Shown here one piece after another: positions 934-19,224 of a stretch of DNA of 64,000 nucleotides (the stretch's first letter is position 1; each line of letters starts with the position of its first letter). The DNA is from Candidatus Terrybacteria bacterium RIFCSPHIGHO2_01_FULL_43_35. Its GTDB lineage: Bacteria; Patescibacteriota; Minisyncoccia; Terrybacterales; GWB1-40-14. Made by a program: the position numbers and the translations under genes. The DNA lies in contig MHSR01000013.1 of assembly GCA_001822815.1 (NCBI GenBank), positions 149,093 to 213,092 of the forward strand, written 5' to 3'. The notes beneath the pieces are model-generated. The model made no database searches. It saw only the letters and a program-made list of their open reading frames with translations, and had not been told where the DNA came from.

Positions 934-1066
934 CTCGTTAGAGACAGCATATCGTTGTTATATTTTGACTATGCATTATAGAGATATTAATGTTTATATA
1001 CAGGACCTAGGCGCAATTTACGGAAACGCTTTAACGTCTTCCGTAAAGCGTTTTCTGTCTCTAACG
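934..1066. repeat. long-range inverted repeat (12-bp arms ctcgttagagacag / ctgtctctaacg) enclosing a 10-bp-stem hairpin (aaacgcttta...taaagcgttt) directly upstream of start codon at 1069
   Basis: seen directly in sequence; arms at 934-947 and 1055-1066, inner hairpin 1024-1053. Confidence 0.5.
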
Positions 1067-1068
1067 GG

Positions 1069-1776
1069 ATGAAAGCTATAATTTTGGCCGGCGGCAAAGG
1101 AACGCGGCTTTATCCGGTGACACTGGAAACGCCCAAGCCTTTGCTGACCGTCAATAAAAAACCAATCCTAAATTATCTTGTCGAGCTGTTTTTTAAGCAC
1201 GGTATTGAAGACGTTGGTGTCACCATAAACGCTGATCACACCGAAGATTTCGATTGGTGGTACAAGCGCTGGTGGGAGGGCGCGCCGATAAGATTCTTTG
1301 AAGAAACCGCACCCCTAGGGACCTTCGGCACTTTGGCCTTGGTGGCCCACTGGATTAAAGGCGAAGATTTTTTTGTCAGCAATGGCGACGAACTTAAAGA
1401 CGTTGATCTTTCCGCGATGAAAGATTATCATCGCGCGCATCCTTCGCCGGCCACCGTTGCCCTGGTATCCGTTCCAAATCCTAAGGATTATGGCGTGGCC
1501 AAACTGGATGGCGATATGATCAGTGAATTTCTTGAGAAGCCAGAAAACCCGCCAACCTCCTATATAAACGCCGGTCTGTACTGTCTTTCACCGGAAATTT
1601 TTGATTATTATACCGGTGCCAACAACGGCTTTGCCATGCTGGAGAAAGATTTGTTTCCCAAATTGGCTAGTGAAGGACGCCTCCATGGCTTCACTTATAA
1701 CGGCAAGTGGCAGGATTGCGGCACATTCGAAAGATGGCAGAAGGCTATGCAAGAATGGGGGAAGGATAACAAGTAG
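1069..1776 (+). CDS. sugar-phosphate nucleotidyltransferase (NTP_transferase family; glucose-1-P thymidylyl-/mannose-1-P guanylyltransferase-like)
   Basis: N-terminal MKAIILAGGKGTRLYPVT (GGxGTRLxP signature), EKP and NAGxY motifs. Confidence 0.75.
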   Translation: MKAIILAGGKGTRLYPVTLETPKPLLTVNKKPILNYLVELFFKHGIEDVGVTINADHTEDFDWWYKRWWEGAPIRFFEETAPLGTFGTLALVAHWIKGEDFFVSNGDELKDVDLSAMKDYHRAHPSPATVALVSVPNPKDYGVAKLDGDMISEFLEKPENPPTSYINAGLYCLSPEIFDYYTGANNGFAMLEKDLFPKLASEGRLHGFTYNGKWQDCGTFERWQKAMQEWGKDNK

Positions 1777-2618: not shown

Positions 2619-3941
2619 ATGTTTGATTTAAAAAATTTCGCCTCGGCCATCAGCCAAATAGTTGAAGAAAAAGGCATACCCGAGGAAAAAGTAGTTGAAA
2701 CTATCGAGTTGGCTCTTGCCGCCGCGTACAAGCGCGATTACGCAAGTCGCGGAGAGAATATTAAAGTTAGCTTTGACCCCAAGAACGGACACATGGAGGT
2801 GTTTAAGGTAATGCTTGTTGTTAATGAAGATATGCTTAAACCAGAGGAAACAGAGGACAACGAAGCGTCTCAAGAAACAGCGCCCCCGCTAAAGATTGAA
2901 ATTGAAAGCAAAAAGAAAACTTCCAAAAAATCGGCTGTCAAAGACAATAAAGAACCCAAAGTCAATAAAATCAAGGAAGAAAAGCCCTCGGAAGAAGACA
3001 CCCGGATACGTTTCAACCAAGCCAGACATATCATGGTTAAGGATGCCAAAAAAATTAGAAAAGGCATTAAAGCCGGAGAAGAACTTTTTACGCCCCTTGA
3101 AGTTCATGAAAATTTTGGACGCATAGCTGCGCAGACGGCCAAGCAGGTGATAATACAGCGCATACGCGAAGCCGAAAGAGAAGCCGTCTTCGGTGAATTC
3201 AAGGACAAAGAAGGCGAATTGATTTCTGGAATAGTTCAGCGCGTTGAAGGGCGGACAGTATATGTGGATATAGGCAAGACATTCGGCGTTTTGTTCCCGC
3301 AGGAACAGATTCCGGGAGAATATTATCGCATTGGCTCGCGCATACGGTTTTATGTCGTAGAGGTTAATTCGGGACCCAAAGGCCCGCAAGTGATATTATC
3401 GCGTTCGCATCCAAAGATGATTTCCAAACTTTTTGAGTTGGAAGTCCCGGAAGTCGCCTCCGGTACAGTTGTATTAAAATCGGTTGCACGTGAAGCCGGC
3501 TCTAGAACCAAGATTGCCGTGACCTCCACGCAAGAAGGTATAGATCCGATAGGTTCTTGTGTTGGCCATCGAGGCACACGTATTACTACCGTTATCGGAG
3601 AGATTGGTGGAGAAAAAATAGACGTTATTGAATGGTCGGAAGATTCGCAACGTTATATCACCAATGCTCTGTCGCCGGCGAAAGCCACTTCGGTTGAGCT
3701 TGGGCAAAAAAATATAGCTGTGGCCACTGTTCCTGACGATCAATTGTCTTTGGCTATAGGCAAAGAGGGTCAGAACGTTAGGTTGGCCGCCAAACTAACC
3801 GGATGGAAAATAGATATACGCGGCGAAAGTGGAGAAGTTACTATGCCCAGCGAGCCTCAAGAAACCACGGATAATTCAGAAGGTGAAAGCGAGGCACAAG
3901 AATCTAATAACAAAGTTGTCACAGACAAAGCAGAGGAATAA
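2619..3941 (+). CDS. nusA: transcription termination/antitermination factor NusA (with Lys/Glu-rich insertion)
   Basis: NusA N-terminal domain, S1 domain (GELISGIVQRVEGRTVYVDIG), two KH domains (GSCVGHRGTRI..., AIGKEGQNVRLAAKLTGWKIDI); likely start Met 2619 (ORF track 2535). Confidence 0.85.
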   Translation: MFDLKNFASAISQIVEEKGIPEEKVVETIELALAAAYKRDYASRGENIKVSFDPKNGHMEVFKVMLVVNEDMLKPEETEDNEASQETAPPLKIEIESKKKTSKKSAVKDNKEPKVNKIKEEKPSEEDTRIRFNQARHIMVKDAKKIRKGIKAGEELFTPLEVHENFGRIAAQTAKQVIIQRIREAEREAVFGEFKDKEGELISGIVQRVEGRTVYVDIGKTFGVLFPQEQIPGEYYRIGSRIRFYVVEVNSGPKGPQVILSRSHPKMISKLFELEVPEVASGTVVLKSVAREAGSRTKIAVTSTQEGIDPIGSCVGHRGTRITTVIGEIGGEKIDVIEWSEDSQRYITNALSPAKATSVELGQKNIAVATVPDDQLSLAIGKEGQNVRLAAKLTGWKIDIRGESGEVTMPSEPQETTDNSEGESEAQESNNKVVTDKAEE

Positions 3942-3976: not shown

Positions 3977-6040
3977 GTGAAAATTTTCATGAATATATCT
4001 TTTGTACTGTTTTCAAGCATAATGATTCTTGCCTGGGCTGGCCTTTTGATTAAATGGGTCCTCAAGCAACCAAAAGGCAGTGAAAAAATGAATGAAATAT
4101 CCCTGGCTATCAGTCAGGGCTCAAACGCTTTTTTGACCAGACAATATAAAACCGTTGCTTTGGTCGCTCTTCCGATAACAATTATTCTTTATTTTGTATT
4201 TGGTTCGATGGTTGCCTTGGGATTTGTTGTTGGCGCGGTTTCGTCAGCCATTGCTGGCATAATCGGAATGCTTATTTCCGTCCGTGCCAATGTGCGCGTT
4301 GCCCAAGCGGCAGAAAAAAGTATGGCACACGCCATGCAAGTTGCTTTCCGTGGCGGTGCGGTCACGGGTTTTTTTGTTGTAGGCTTGGGATTGCTTTCCG
4401 TGACGTGTTTTTGGCTTGTGGTTGGCAACGAAATATTCCCATTGGTGGCCTTGAGTTTTGGCGCATCTTTGATTTCTGTTTTTGCGAGGCTCGGCGGCGG
4501 AATTTATACCAAAGGCGCTGATGTTGGTGCTGACCTCGTTGGTAAAATTGAAGTTGGAATTCCGGAAGATGATCCGCGCAATCCCGCGGTCATTGCCGAC
4601 AACGTCGGCGACAATGTGGGTGATTGCGCTGGCATGGCCGCAGATCTTTTTGAAACTTACGTAGTAACTATAGTAGCTTCATTTATTCTTGCCCGTTCTC
4701 TTTTCCCGGATTTATCCTCGGCATTGCTTTTGCCTTTGGGCTTGGCGGCCATAGCTATACTTGCCACACCTATCGGCATGCTGGCTTTGGGCAAAGTTAA
4801 AGATTCAAAATCCATAATGAGTGCTATGTACAGGTCTCTTATTGTTACTGCCGTATTGTCGGCCGCGGGTTTCTGGGTAGTGACGCACGCCTTAGATTTT
4901 TCAAAATTGAACCCATCTTCCGGCGCTTCAGTAGCTTATCCCTCGGCTCTTGAGCTGTGGCTTGCGTCTTTGATCGGACTTGTGATTACGGCGCTGATGG
5001 TTTTGGTGACCGATTACTACACGGCCAAGAAATTCCGTCCGGTTCAATCTATAGCTAAAGCATCCGAAACCGGACACGCTACAAATATTATCAGCGGTTT
5101 GGCCATAGGCATGGAGGCGACAGCCGCGCCAATTGTGATTGTTGTTGCCGGAATGATTTCGGCTTATTTGGTTGTGGGCGGCGGAGTCGTTGGAGTTTTT
5201 GGCATAGCAATTGCGGCTGTGGCTATGCTTTCTTTGGCAGGAATAATTGTGGCCATAGACGCTTTCGGCCCCATTACTGATAATGCCGGTGGCATCGCTG
5301 AAATGTCCCATTTGTCCCCCTCGTTGCGCGAGGTTACCGATGCTTTAGATGCGGTCGGCAATACAACCAAAGCGGTGACTAAGGGTTATGCTATAGCTTC
5401 GGCGGCTTTGGCCTCTTTGGTACTTTTTGCCGGATATCGTCAGGAGATAATTTCCGCCTCGCAGACCGTAGCTGCTTCTTTAGATTTTAATATAACTAAC
5501 GTTAAAGTAATCGCCGGTTTGTTTTTAGGCGCCATGGTCCCGTATCTTTTTGCTTCGCTGGCCATGCGCGCTGTTGGCAAATCAGCAGGATCAATAGTTG
5601 AAGAAGTTCGCCGTCAATTTAAAGAAAAGCCAGGTATTATGAATGGTACAGATAAGCCAGATTATGCCCGAGCCGTTGATATAGTTACCAGCGCGGCTTT
5701 GCGTGAAATGATTTTGCCGACATTGTTGCCCGTGGGTGTTCCAATATTGATAGCTTATGCGCTTGGCCTGGAGGCCTTGGGTGGAGCCTTGATCGGCGTC
5801 ATTGTCACGGGTCTTTTTGTCGCGCTTTCTATGACCTCGGGCGGAGCGGCATGGGATAACGCCAAGAAATATATTGAAGAGGGACATTTTGGAGGTAAGG
5901 GTTCCGCGGCGCATAAAGCCGCCGTGACAGGAGATACGGTAGGGGATCCGTATAAAGACACCGCTGGACCAGCCATAAACCCCGTTATTAAAGTCATGAA
6001 CATCATCGCCATTTTGCTGGTTCGAGTCATTGTCAAATAA
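3977..6040 (+). CDS. hppA: membrane-bound proton-translocating pyrophosphatase (K+-independent type, Lys in GNTTKA)
   Basis: [59 protein letters not shown] signatures; ~16 TM helices. Confidence 0.9.
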
Positions 6041-18053: not shown

Positions 18054-18059
18054 CTCCTG

Positions 18060-18130
18060 AGCGAGTGAAGGGAATCGAACCCTCGTATCCAGTTTGGAAA
18101 ACTGGCGCACTACCATTGTGCTACACTCGC
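18060..18130 (-). tRNA. tRNA-Gly (anticodon UCC), no encoded CCA
   Basis: manual cloverleaf: acceptor GCGAGTG/CACTCGC, D stem GCAC/GTGC, anticodon stem CCAGT/ACTGG loop TTTCCAA, T arm GAGGG-TTCGATT-CCCTT. Confidence 0.8.
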
Positions 18131-18192
18131 ATGTTTGATTGTTCGCTCAAATTTGCGAGAGAAAACTAGAGTTTTCGCCCTACGGCGAAATC

Positions 18193-18264
18193 CTGGGAAA
18201 TTTTTAACGCTCCGCGAGGACGCTCCGCTAAATTTCCCGCGCGACACAAGCAGTTGTGTCGCGC
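18193..18264. repeat. structured repeat unit A (hairpin GGGAAATTT...AAATTTCCC + GCAG-loop hairpin)
   Basis: one of three related units (with 18763-18832 and 18843-18914) showing compensatory stem changes around conserved GCAG loop. Confidence 0.6.
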
Positions 18265-18292
18265 CCACATACGATACCCGCATGATCGATTT

Positions 18293-18652
18293 TTATTTTA
18301 GCAAAATATTCTTAATGCGTTTTACCTCTTGTTCAACAATCTCCCCGTCGTATTCTCCGCCGTGAGCACTCGTCCCCATATAAGAAGGTTTTTTCTGGTC
18401 TAAATGAAGTTTTAATACAACTCCCGCATTATTAAAAGAGATATAAATATGAAATCGCGGATAATCTATGCCCTGAAGCGGACGTTCATAACTTATTTGA
18501 CCGGATTTAAAGTATCTGTGTTCCATATAACCCGCTTCGCGCATGGCATAGCGAAGATTTTGCTTTAGCTCTCCGATGATTATATCCATAAAAATGTTTG
18601 AGTGCAGGAATATTAAAAACTGTGTCGGGGTGCTGGGAGAACTCGGCCTCAT
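18293..18652 (-). CDS. hypothetical protein (probable start at Met 18589)
   Basis: ORF between two tRNA genes; no recognisable domain (HGGEYDG segment). Confidence 0.4.
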   Translation of the reverse strand: MRPSSPSTPTQFLIFLHSNIFMDIIIGELKQNLRYAMREAGYMEHRYFKSGQISYERPLQGIDYPRFHIYISFNNAGVVLKLHLDQKKPSYMGTSAHGGEYDGEIVEQEVKRIKNILLK

Positions 18653-18664
18653 TAAGTCCTAAGT

Positions 18665-18735
18665 CGGGGTGCCGAGAATTGAACTCGGTCTTCGTGCTCC
18701 CAAAGCACGCGTACTGCCGGTATACTACACCCCGA
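18665..18735 (-). tRNA. tRNA-Pro (anticodon UGG), no encoded CCA
   Basis: manual cloverleaf: acceptor CGGGGTG/CACCCCG, D stem GTAT/GTAC, anticodon stem CGTGC/GCACG loop TTTGGGA, T arm CCGAG-TTCAATT-CTCGG. Confidence 0.75.
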
Positions 18736-18762
18736 CTTAGGACTTAATTTTTTGTAGGAACC

Positions 18763-18832
18763 CCGGGCATTTTTAAACGCTCAACAGGGACGTTTCGTTA
18801 AAATGCCCGCGAGAAACGAGCAGTCGTTTTGT
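18763..18832. repeat. structured repeat unit B (diverged)
   Basis: hairpin GGGCATTTTTAAACG...CGTTTCGTTAAAATGCCC followed by acga-GCAG-tcgt hairpin. Confidence 0.5.
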
Positions 18833-18842
18833 ATAGGTACCC

Positions 18843-18914
18843 AGGGAAATTTTTAACGCTCCGCCGGGAGGCTCCGCTAAATTTCCCGCTTGAGCCAAGC
18901 AGTTGGCTCAAGCC
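18843..18914. repeat. structured repeat unit C
   Basis: cagggaaatttttaacgctccgccgggaggctccgctaaatttcccgc + ttgagccaaGCAGttggctcaagc. Confidence 0.6.
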
Positions 18915-19002
18915 CCAAAGCACGCGTACTACCACTATACGACTCCCTGGCGTTAAAAGGTGGGCGGGCAAGAAGCACGCGTACTGCCAGCATATCCCGA
19001 CG
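18915..19002 (-). pseudogene. two degenerate copies of the tRNA-Pro 5' half (pseudo-tRNA fragments)
   Basis: 18915-18953 and 18974-19002 match aagcacgcgtactgcc... of tRNA-Pro 18699-18735 but cannot form anticodon stem or 3' half. Confidence 0.55.
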
Positions 19003-19224
19003 TTCAAGTCGGGATCCCGACTTCAATCAATAAATTATTGATAGTGCATCGGGACGACACCCCGTTTTAAAAGCCTTAAATTCTAAGGGCTTACGCTATA
19101 AATATGCTATAATATAAGTAATAAAAGCGCGATAGGCAAGACAAGTTCGCGTTTATATTTAGCCCAATTTAATAAGGGTTCAAAAAGGGCATTTTGGAAC
19201 TGTGCGGCATTTGATCCCACCAAC

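Follow-up and report, generated by a model that had tools for sequence, protein, structure and literature searches.

The DNA studied here is a 64,000-nucleotide stretch (64 kb, hereafter the window) of contig MHSR01000013.1 from Candidatus Terrybacteria bacterium RIFCSPHIGHO2_01_FULL_43_35, in which a tRNA-Gly gene and a tRNA-Pro gene are accompanied by three copies (units A, B and C) of a short structured element. With a probability of about 0.6, we regard these units as a non-autonomous, strand-specific structured insertion module of tRNA-gene replacement cassettes that is spread across the candidate phyla radiation (CPR), and we favour to the same degree the view that DNA inserted into tRNA genes starts with the element, as its defined 5' end. 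In the window itself, comparison with relatives indicates that the ancestral tRNA-Pro was destroyed by units C and B and an ancestral-type tRNA-Gly by unit A, with a working, different copy lying beside each. The combination of a structured family, a fixed G-run 5' junction, replacement tRNAs, presence and absence among relatives, degenerate copies and genome-specific variants of the second hairpin points to a selfish non-autonomous module rather than to an integrase scar or a promoter.

A repeat search of the window returned one 75-nt direct-repeat family with three members (18192-18266, 18762-18836 and 18841-18915), with identities to the reference copy of 84% and 68%; unit B is 68% identical to unit A. 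Folding gave two hairpins per unit on either strand, with z-scores from -2.4 to -6.1. In the GCAG-loop hairpin (its loop reads CUGC on the minus strand), the arm sequences vary from copy to copy while their complementarity is kept. Since the units reach 94, 93 and 70 bits with a covariance model (E between 1e-13 and 1e-19), the pairing of these differing arms is not due to chance. Thus repeat search, folding and covariance model agree on what the first-pass annotation of this DNA had described, three structured units beside tRNA-Gly and tRNA-Pro on the minus strand. Its positions hold, and only the extents grow slightly, to (T/G)GGG-P1-CGGG-P2-CCCNGG (P1 and P2 being the first and second hairpins), with a third hairpin (hp3) added for unit A. 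The units are as follows.

18840-18916, minus strand: unit C (covariance-model match, 94.1 bits; member of the repeat family)
18761-18839, minus strand: unit B, diverged or degenerate (covariance-model match, 69.6 bits)
18192-18267, minus strand: unit A (covariance-model match, 92.7 bits; fold of -37.6 kcal/mol, z = -4.1)
18173-18190, minus strand: hp3 of unit A, UUUCGCC-GUAG-GGCGAAA (module typical of the family)

Unit C reads 5' GGGG, P1 (GCTTGAGCCAA/TTGGCTCAAGC, loop CUGC), CGGG-P2-CCC and TGGG, and is fused directly to a broken resident tRNA-Pro. Unit B begins at the terminal 3' TGGG of unit C, so that the two abut directly; it has a short P1, no 5' GGG and a P2 of the GGGCAUUUU type. The same C-B tandem is present in the strain contigs L099-L106 and in L022 (labels L001-L107 denote collected loci or contigs carrying pattern matches or homologues of ORF98, an open reading frame (ORF) of the window described below). 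Unit A consists of TGGG, P1 (GCGCGACACAA/TTGTGTCGCGC), a P2 of the same type as that of unit C, and CCCAGG. No fourth unit was found in the window, either by a pattern allowing 3 mismatches or by the covariance model.

For the search of further copies, we derived a pattern from the three window copies and applied it to the GTDB species genomes, and a looser pattern to metagenomes. The strict pattern gave 14 loci, of which 11 are CPR-named (Parcubacteria group, Wildermuthbacteria, Niyogibacteria and Saccharibacteria), 2 come from an unclassified 'bacterium' metagenome-assembled genome (MAG), and 1 is labelled Elusimicrobia. In this last locus (L002, JAGHAK010000089.1) the unit adjoins tRNA-Pro(ggg); it is either a mis-binned CPR contig or an extension of the family beyond CPR. 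The looser pattern gave 78 metagenome loci, and among these the covariance model (R1) confirmed 65 hits. The family comprises about 60 distinct copies, and the counts of genomic context below refer to ~58.

Base pairing in this family is strongly conserved. On 17 sequences, RNAalifold found compensatory changes in 13/24 pairs. With 60 distinct sequences, 97.3% of cells were paired and changes on both sides occurred in 16/24 pairs (270 cells); none of 500 shuffles matched the observed pairing and covariation (0/500), and controls with slid partners were 28-52% paired. The earlier proposal that the second-hairpin arms differ yet stay complementary under selection on structure is therefore borne out well beyond the window. 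The family consensus is (T/G)GGG-Y-P1(10-11 bp)-R-C-GGG-P2-CCC-N-GG, and the internal-loop core of P2 is nearly invariant (UUUAGCGA / GAGCGUUAAAA). One site is a G.U pair in 58/60 copies, and the other helix positions hold 24 G.U against 8 A.C, so the fold is read on one strand, which in the window is the tRNA-sense strand. The third hairpin (GGUUUYGC-loop-GCRAAAC) follows directly after NGG in about 30/58 distinct copies by hand reading (an automatic flag gave 37), and the element is ~75 nt long alone and ~105 nt with hp3. Copies of one genome share a P2 helix variant and differ in P1 (L004/L011, L006/L014, L007/L012 and window units A and C), which argues for turnover or conversion rather than old independent paralogues. 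Degenerate copies also exist, namely unit B, L107 with a mutated core, and a truncated unit C in L022.

No match of the element to anything described was found. Against Rfam 15, the window and the 14 loci gave only tRNAs at the gathering score, and nothing lay over the units at E<=10 or E<=5; taken together, the gathering-score and permissive searches covered the window and 18 loci, with tRNAs as the sole matches; the models tested included hepatitis delta virus (HDV)-like, hatchet, twister, pistol and hammerhead ribozymes, HEARO/omega-RNA and tRNA-like elements. Among IMG/VR viral contigs the strict pattern had 0 matches and the loose pattern 2, neither confirmed by the covariance model, and BLAST against INPHARED (phage) and PLSDB (plasmid) gave no matches. 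A full-text literature search, including work on GIY-YIG and tRNA genes, found no description of it. The units are an uncatalogued, widespread structured family in CPR bacteria that is under selection for pairing.

Two roles considered for hp3 were rejected. Kissing of its loop with the P2 apical loop was no better than in permuted pairs (mean 3.47 vs 3.39, p = 0.29), and a general terminator does not fit, as a T-run follows the hp3 of unit A only. Some loci carry additional structure. In L007 (1-115, minus strand) and L030 (~230-350), further conserved hairpins follow the unit and hp3, with compensatory changes between them (AGCGCC-UAAG-GCGCU vs CUCGCC-GAAG-GCGAG), and the unit is preceded by a solo P1-like hairpin equal to the P1 of another copy in the same genome. 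L021 holds two convergent units, 972-1056(+) and 1081-1163(-), 25 nt apart, one of them with a diverged P2 core.

The tRNA genes and tRNA pieces around the window units are listed below.

18914-18949, minus strand: resident tRNA-Pro 5' half, +1 to G37 (comparison with L093)
18663-18734, minus strand: intact tRNA-Pro(tgg), replacement copy (ARAGORN and Rfam)
18651-18748, minus strand: the intact tRNA-Pro with its bracketing inverted repeat (tRNA search and repeat search)
18625-18648, minus strand: decayed tRNA-Pro 3' remnant, made up of a T-arm shortened by a deletion in its loop and of the acceptor 3' strand (GGCCGAGTTCTCCCAGCACCCCGA) (repeat search and sequence)
18265-18281, minus strand: tRNA-Gly 5' fragment, +1 to the D-loop GG, GCGGGTATCGTATGTGG, fused to unit A (comparison with L093)
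18059-18172, minus strand: spacer CTCTAG, 35-nt leader and intact tRNA-Gly(tcc) (tRNA search and sequence)
18059-18130, minus strand: intact tRNA-Gly(tcc) itself (ARAGORN and Rfam)

At the proline locus, the resident 5' half stops in the anticodon loop at CUUUGGG, which is the start of unit C. It is identical at 35/36 positions to the intact tRNA-Pro of the unit-free relative L093, and the 31-nt flank upstream of it at 30/31; the 5' half of the intact window tRNA-Pro reaches only 31/36. Because the broken half matches L093 better than the intact copy does and still has the flank found there, the ancestral tRNA-Pro was cut after UGGG. The first-pass annotation was right that a tRNA-Pro 5' half lies here, but by this comparison it is the original half, in place on its native upstream flank, and not a copy. 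After the cut come units C and B, a spacer, a second complete tRNA-Pro, and then, downstream of that intact gene, the decayed T-arm and acceptor remnant, better-preserved equivalents of which occupy the same position in L011, L012, L026, L037, L068 and L006. The intact tRNA-Pro is enclosed by a perfect 21-nt inverted repeat (18651-18671 / 18728-18748), in which a 14-nt leader and trailer lengthen the acceptor stem to a total of 21 bp; no such repeat accompanies tRNA-Pro in L093 or L107.

At the glycine locus, the 17-nt fragment fused to unit A matches the tRNA-Gly(tcc) of L093 at 17/18 positions and the window's own tRNA-Gly at only 11/18. Sequence comparison thus indicates that a tRNA-Gly of the ancestral type was cut in its D-loop at GG, with the 5' GGG of unit A forming the junction. 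The body of the intact window tRNA-Gly is of a different type (GCGAGTGTAGCACAATGG...), and its leader is identical to that of the L093 tRNA-Gly at 29/36 positions. As a side observation, this body equals that of the L066 tRNA-Gly(ccc) (2108-2179) and its anticodon arm that of the L093 tRNA-Gly(tcc) (4344-4415), so that the window gene looks like a chimeric or remoulded tRNA. The tRNA-Gly fragment, the tRNA-Pro 3' remnant, the 21-nt inverted repeat and the hp3 of unit A had all escaped the first-pass annotation.

Related loci were found through contigs with ORF98 homologues, and L093 was compared with the window base by base. L093, whose ORF is 69% identical, has the syntenic order PilB, response regulator, histidine kinase, tRNA-Pro, ORF, tRNA-Gly, ..., PAP2, Sua5, CofD, without a unit. 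L107 (ORF 68% identical) has an uninterrupted tRNA-Pro and a single unit with a mutated core, before tRNA-Gly only; there it carries the same tRNA-Gly fragment plus unit, behind a flank that appears by eye to be homologous to that of the intact tRNA-Gly of L011. L011 is more distant, its pilB being 67% identical in DNA; there a unit is present at tRNA-Pro only, at the same anticodon-loop position as in the window. We take the tRNA-Pro insertions of the window and L011 to be independent, since tRNA-Pro is unbroken in both loci that are syntenic with the window around ORF98, L107 and L093. Downstream, these two also carry the 3' remnant of a tRNA-Gly of the other type. In L093 we also noticed inverted copies of a 29-nt palindromic hairpin, CCCCGCACC-AGAATAAATTC-GGTGCGGGG, at 3757-3790 and 4440-4470; they bracket the whole tRNA-Pro-ORF-tRNA-Gly segment, and their motif is that of the tRNA leader and trailer repeats described below.

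The remaining features of the window locus are context.

18293-18589, minus strand: ORF98, native gene of a small CPR protein, placed between the two tRNA genes (ORF)
18950-19026, minus strand: native upstream flank with an older tRNA-Pro-like remnant and a palindrome (repeat search)

ORF98 is 100% identical to a protein of Candidatus Terrybacteria RIFCSPLOWO2_01_FULL, and its conserved family of 98-aa proteins has 241 homologues and no Pfam match, those with a named source being CPR/Patescibacteria or unclassified MAGs. We rejected it as a protein of the element, as it sits in the same place in the unit-free relative L093 and in L107. In the flank, the second tRNA-Pro 5'-half copy proposed earlier does exist as a remnant (18969-19002, 68% identity). 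Because its 3' part, GCGTGCTTCTTGCCCGCCC (the shared part also given as GCGTGCTTCTTGCCCGCCCACC), occurs in L093 too, it predates the unit insertion. Beyond it, an inverted-repeat search confirmed one palindrome, at 19003-19026, which from its sequence looks like a collapsed tRNA-Pro acceptor stem.

The association with tRNA genes extends through the family. Of ~58 distinct copies, 33 have an intact tRNA gene no more than 150 nt away, for the most part on the unit's own strand, and at least 10 tRNA identities are represented. The left flank ends in (T/G)GGG in 54-58/60 copies, and for 17/62 5' flanks the alignment to a tRNA scores higher than that of any shuffled flank. Very often a tRNA piece stands directly 5' of the unit, its G-run fused with the unit's own GGG, and such junctions occur at several tRNA positions (a slash marks the boundary).

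D-loop (...AGCUCAGU-GG/G): L005, L006, L012, L015, L033, L036, L037, L039, L066, L068, L082, L026 and window unit A
Anticodon loop of tRNA-Pro (CUUUGGG/G): window unit C and L011
T-stem of tRNA-Cys: L010 and L040
Variable arm of tRNA-Leu: L044
Reverse orientation, CCC anticodon of tRNA-Gly: L001
Reverse orientation, acceptor CCC of intact tRNA-Lys and tRNA-Arg: L009, L019, L050 and L061

Loci with the unit ahead of an intact tRNA share a nested order: the resident 5' part (from +1 to the G-run), the unit with or without hp3, a spacer, a leader repeat, an intact tRNA, a trailer repeat, a short tail, and finally the resident 3' part. The intact inner tRNA carries the same anticodon as the broken resident, and beyond the window the nesting involves at least 8 further tRNA identities. 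The resident acceptor strands pair with each other and not with the inner tRNA, as in the following pairs.

L012: GTCCCCG/CGGGGAC
L026: CGGGCTG/CAGCCCG
L037: GGGCTCG/CGAGCCC
L068: GGCGAGG/CCTCGCC
L006: GGACAC/GTGTCC
L011: CGGGATG/CATCCCG

Inner and outer tRNAs differ by 0 to ~40%, and the outer stems are nonetheless perfect; the inner tRNA was therefore often already different at the time of insertion, which suggests a foreign or paralogous origin. A mirror layout is seen in L039, L066, L010, L040, L044 and L060, where the intact tRNA lies upstream and a second copy, truncated at its 5' side but continuing at its 3' side to the tRNA end, harbours the unit with or without hp3; the tRNA after the L066 unit is partial. 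L039 is a clean case, with 75 nt inserted into a D-loop, GGG on either side and nothing else duplicated. In 533 kb of collected sequence there were 13 orphan T-arms, all within 513 nt of a unit, and whole inserts go down to ~85 nt (L006, L018, L056).

Two other repeats recur around CPR tRNA genes. Inverted repeats of 10-17 bp in leader and trailer prolong the acceptor stem of many of them (window, L010-L013, L026, L030, L033, L037, L008, L091), with the motifs CCCCGTTAGAAAT...ATTTCTAACGGGG, CCCCGTACCAAA.../...TTTGGTACGGGG and CCCCGCACCTTTT/AAAAGGTGCGGGG. They could be pre-tRNA processing stems or the ends of mobile tRNA cassettes; as a unit-specific feature they were rejected, being present also on tRNAs 3-10 kb from any unit. 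The second is a hairpin element, CCCGCC-N3-4-GGCGGG, often after CTTG, which lies in tRNA anticodon loops or beside tRNA fragments at the sites below. In L068 it forms a ~50-nt direct repeat flanking an insert of a GIY-YIG gene and tRNA-Ser.

L068: ~2795-2845 and ~3225-3275
L036: ~565-610
Window: 18955-18975
L011: 5540-5575
L107: 2820-2860

The same strand bias and conservation raise the question of whether the unit serves the host, as a maintained non-coding RNA or a cis-acting pre-tRNA module (for processing, stability or as a folding insulator) that is co-transcribed with the tRNAs. The broken tRNA pieces would then be by-products of frequent tRNA-gene duplication and replacement and not of unit mobility. 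We consider this, and with it the tRNA-linked small RNA suggested in the first-pass annotation, still a rival, though an unlikely one. The very strong covariation, a core nearly invariant across Saccharibacteria and Parcubacteria, G.U pairs on the tRNA-sense strand only, an orientation agreeing with the neighbouring tRNA in ~27/34 cases, and the retention of units at the tRNA-Pro/tRNA-Gly locus in lineages with pilB only 67% identical would all suit such an RNA. However, the close relatives L093 and L107 lack the unit at the same tRNAs, mutated-core or truncated copies persist (L107, L022, unit B), and units lie inside dead tRNA fragments or in divergent orientation overlapping tRNA 5' ends. 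The genome-specific helix variant, with the turnover that it implies, and a 5' boundary fused at G-runs at many different tRNA positions likewise speak against such an RNA.

Two further explanations in terms of the tRNA genes themselves failed. The promoter element family suggested in the first-pass annotation was rejected: sequences upstream of the units are unrelated between copies, the units occur both upstream and downstream of tRNAs, and matches to the consensus promoter in the region were at chance (2 found vs 2.1 expected); in L004, a separate good promoter can be read between unit and tRNA. A tRNA intron of the group I or bulge-helix-bulge (BHB) kind was also rejected, as an insert of 75-105 nt is too small for a group I core, no Rfam intron matched, and the interrupted tRNAs lack acceptor strands, anticodon arms or T-loops while an intact copy adjoins.

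Structured insertions in transcribed RNA genes are known from other systems. R2 elements reside in 28S rRNA genes and carry an HDV-like ribozyme. Mobile tRNA introns have been reported in archaea (Fujishima et al. 2010, cited in PMC10714607). The present element resembles these in having a defined site in an essential transcribed RNA gene, structured RNA at the exact 5' junction, and the same short element at several tRNA positions. Unlike them, it comes with neither a reverse transcriptase nor a BHB motif, it has the fold of no known ribozyme, HDV-like or other, and the interrupted tRNAs are dead and replaced rather than spliced.

We surveyed the neighbouring genes within the ~1.5-4 kb around each of the ~58 copies by a Pfam scan of 150 ORFs and an all-against-all BLAST of 1634 ORFs. 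No recurrent integrase, transposase or reverse transcriptase was found among the 150 ORFs, and BLAST showed no recurrent neighbour beyond duplicates of the same genome regions. LAGLIDADG_1 had two matches among the 150 ORFs, one of them placed in L033 at 2719-3162(-), upstream of a unit preceding tRNA-Ile-tRNA-Ala; it is probably an rRNA-operon intron ORF, and we took it as unrelated.

tRNA genes are classical integration sites, and the first-pass annotation had read the remnants as possible traces of tRNA-targeted integration or recombination. Its insertion or recombination part stands, given the unit-free syntenic loci and the nested broken tRNAs; its integrase and att-site part does not. 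The units could in principle be att scars left where a prophage or integrative element entered tRNA genes by means of an integrase, and partial tRNA duplicates do flank the region. We nevertheless regard this as largely refuted and barely conceivable. The search found no integrase in the window between 15000 and 22500, as well as none recurring near the other copies, whole inserts shrink to ~85 nt, junctions fall at several positions in tRNAs of many identities, it is mainly 5' parts that are duplicated, a complete second tRNA is present, and the phage, plasmid and viral-contig collections held no confirmed match. Tyrosine-integrase islands and prophages share with the cassettes the targeting of tRNA genes, the partial tRNA duplicates at the borders and the preserved tRNA function; they differ from them on the same grounds of integrase, insert size, 5' duplication, whole new tRNA and range of tRNA species. 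Nor do the units look like integron attC sites, which have R''/R' boxes (RYYYAAC ... GTTRRRY) paired at the hairpin base, stand in cassette arrays and are served by IntI. Here terminal boxes and an ORF-attC array are absent, no IntI lies nearby, and the GTT inside P2 pairs with AGC via G.U.

GIY-YIG was the sole Pfam family with more than two members among the 150 neighbouring ORFs (4 members). In L005, L050, L068 and L080 a small GIY-YIG gene (PF01541, E 1e-12 to 1e-18) lies directly beside the inner tRNA; another, in L001, is beside tRNA-Gln ~5 kb from the unit and is not counted among these four loci. The genes encode ~80-97 aa.

L005: 6545-6835(-)
L050: 5581-5850(+)
L068: 2739-3104(+)
L080: 1224-1532(-)
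L001: 1527-1811(-)

These genes sit inside split resident tRNAs, and in L050 the GIY-YIG ORF is followed by a repeat of the tRNA 3' end and of the ORF's own first ~15 nt. The closest known parallel to this arrangement that we weighed is the free-standing GIY-YIG homing endonuclease cassettes of T4-like phages (Seg family), of which SegB lies in a tRNA gene cluster. Both occur in tRNA gene regions, with a small GIY-YIG gene beside a variant target copy and flanking partial target duplicates, and both presumably spread by cutting alleles without the cassette. An endonuclease adjoining a variant target copy is present in the four loci named above and absent in the window and most copies. In further contrast to Seg cassettes, what is conserved here is a folded non-coding module of 75-105 nt joined at a G-run, the resident tRNA is left as nested halves and not co-converted, and the hosts are cellular CPR genomes, not phages.

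The nuclease genes also bear on whether the unit might be the RNA device of a new tRNA-gene homing system, which we judge highly improbable. In one version, a tRNA-derived 5' segment transcribed from the resident promoter and fused to a scaffold of 2-3 hairpins would guide a small nuclease, for instance GIY-YIG, to tRNA genes that are uninterrupted, much like the omega-RNA of IscB or an sgRNA; in the other, the precise GGG end used in copying the cassette would be made by a new RNA that cleaves itself or defines an end, comparable to the ribozyme of R2 elements. The layout is suggestive, with a variable target-derived 5' segment of 16-36 nt before a conserved 2-3-hairpin scaffold of 75-105 nt, a sharp 5' boundary, a landing site inside a transcribed RNA gene, and small GIY-YIG nucleases without a DNA-binding domain in some cassettes. 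But no nuclease gene consistently adjoins the unit, no IscB-, TnpB- or Cas-like gene recurs nearby, and even E<=10 brought no match to a known family of ribozymes or omega-RNAs. Moreover, the inner tRNAs of L005 and L082 match the 'guide' near-perfectly and would hence be self-targeted, and many copies have non-tRNA flanks.

The ends of the unit were considered in the light of small mobile repeats. By the classical criterion for MITEs (transposable elements of the miniature inverted-repeat type), no terminal inverted repeats are present: the ends are GGGY... and ...CCCNGG, and the 2-3 consecutive hairpins are unrelated. As to target-site duplication, the GGG on both sides in L039 is indistinguishable from the element's terminal GGG, and elsewhere the duplicated tRNA stretch is a variable 17-36 nt. 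A MITE of another kind was also weighed, a single-stranded-DNA transposon derivative of the IS200/IS605/repetitive extragenic palindromic (REP) kind, moved by a Y1 HUH transposase encoded elsewhere, inserting 3' of (T)GGG and ending in NGGG. Strand specificity, asymmetric hairpins in place of terminal inverted repeats, tolerated G.T pairs, left flanks ending in (T/G)GGG with units ending in CCCNGG(G), and the clean D-loop insertion of L039 would be in line with it. We find it improbable all the same: the two hairpins are mutually unrelated, unlike those that a single TnpA binds at the left and right ends, the right end of the element varies (unit alone, unit plus hp3, or unit plus a whole tRNA cassette), no transposase recurs among the neighbours, and the accompanying replacement tRNA is left unexplained. 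More broadly, REP sequences and bacterial interspersed mosaic elements (BIMEs), IS200/IS605-derived elements and Rickettsia palindromic elements are small structured non-autonomous bacterial repeats. All of these are, like the units, short, multi-copy and ORF-less, keep their hairpins by compensatory change and can insert in genes. The units differ in having no terminal inverted repeats or paired REP geometry, and in their strong preference for tRNA genes, fixed 5' junction, variable 3' extent and accompanying replacement tRNA.

Several observations weigh against the insertion module. L093 is not a naive empty site at tRNA-Gly, since the leader that in the window follows the unit is retained there, together with the remnant of a tRNA-Gly of another type; this implies that deletion as well as insertion shaped these loci, in repeated rounds of replacement. 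No insertion polymorphism within a population was seen, all strain contigs with an identical ORF98 sharing one arrangement (L103 was rejected as a strain variant, because its contig merely starts inside unit C), and no excised or free form of the element was seen. The window encodes no mobility enzyme and no GIY-YIG protein, GIY-YIG genes stand at only 4 of the ~58 distinct unit loci, and their products are single-domain proteins of ~90 aa with no evident DNA-binding domain. The copies in L003, L008, L016 and L048 have no adjoining tRNA piece. The loci were gathered by sequence patterns, so the breadth of the family and its contexts are a sample. Finally, a core almost invariant across very distant CPR lineages, together with the same-strand bias, would also fit an RNA of benefit to the host.

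As for how the module moves, we tentatively suggest a homing-type spread by break and copy repair. A nuclease acting in cis or in trans would cut the resident tRNA gene, and repair would copy the cassette from a donor, with tRNA homology anchoring one side and the unit end joined on the other through GGG(G)(C) microhomology of 3-5 nt. Thanks to the replacement tRNA, the host would survive an otherwise lethal hit. The conserved fold might act single-stranded on the tRNA-sense strand, either in a transcript from the resident tRNA promoter, where it would separate the dead 5' piece from the new pre-tRNA or define an RNA end, or as a structure recognised when the end is made. The sharp G-run junction and the occasional GIY-YIG partner make the mechanism experimentally testable, and the RNA-assisted versions, if true, would be a new kind of selfish tRNA gene replacement.

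The family adds a well-supported structured element of ~100 nt that Rfam lacks, documented by ~60 distinct copies with extensive covariation. CPR (Patescibacteria) genomes are tiny, and most of their tRNA genes are single-copy and essential. If our reading is true, a selfish element inserts into such essential single-copy genes by carrying a spare tRNA, and leaves nested 'tRNA within tRNA' wrecks behind. This would account for the enigmatic tRNA fragments of CPR genomes, for their duplicated or chimeric tRNAs and for mis-annotated tRNAs, and tRNA genes would be gateways for gene exchange between very distant CPR lineages.

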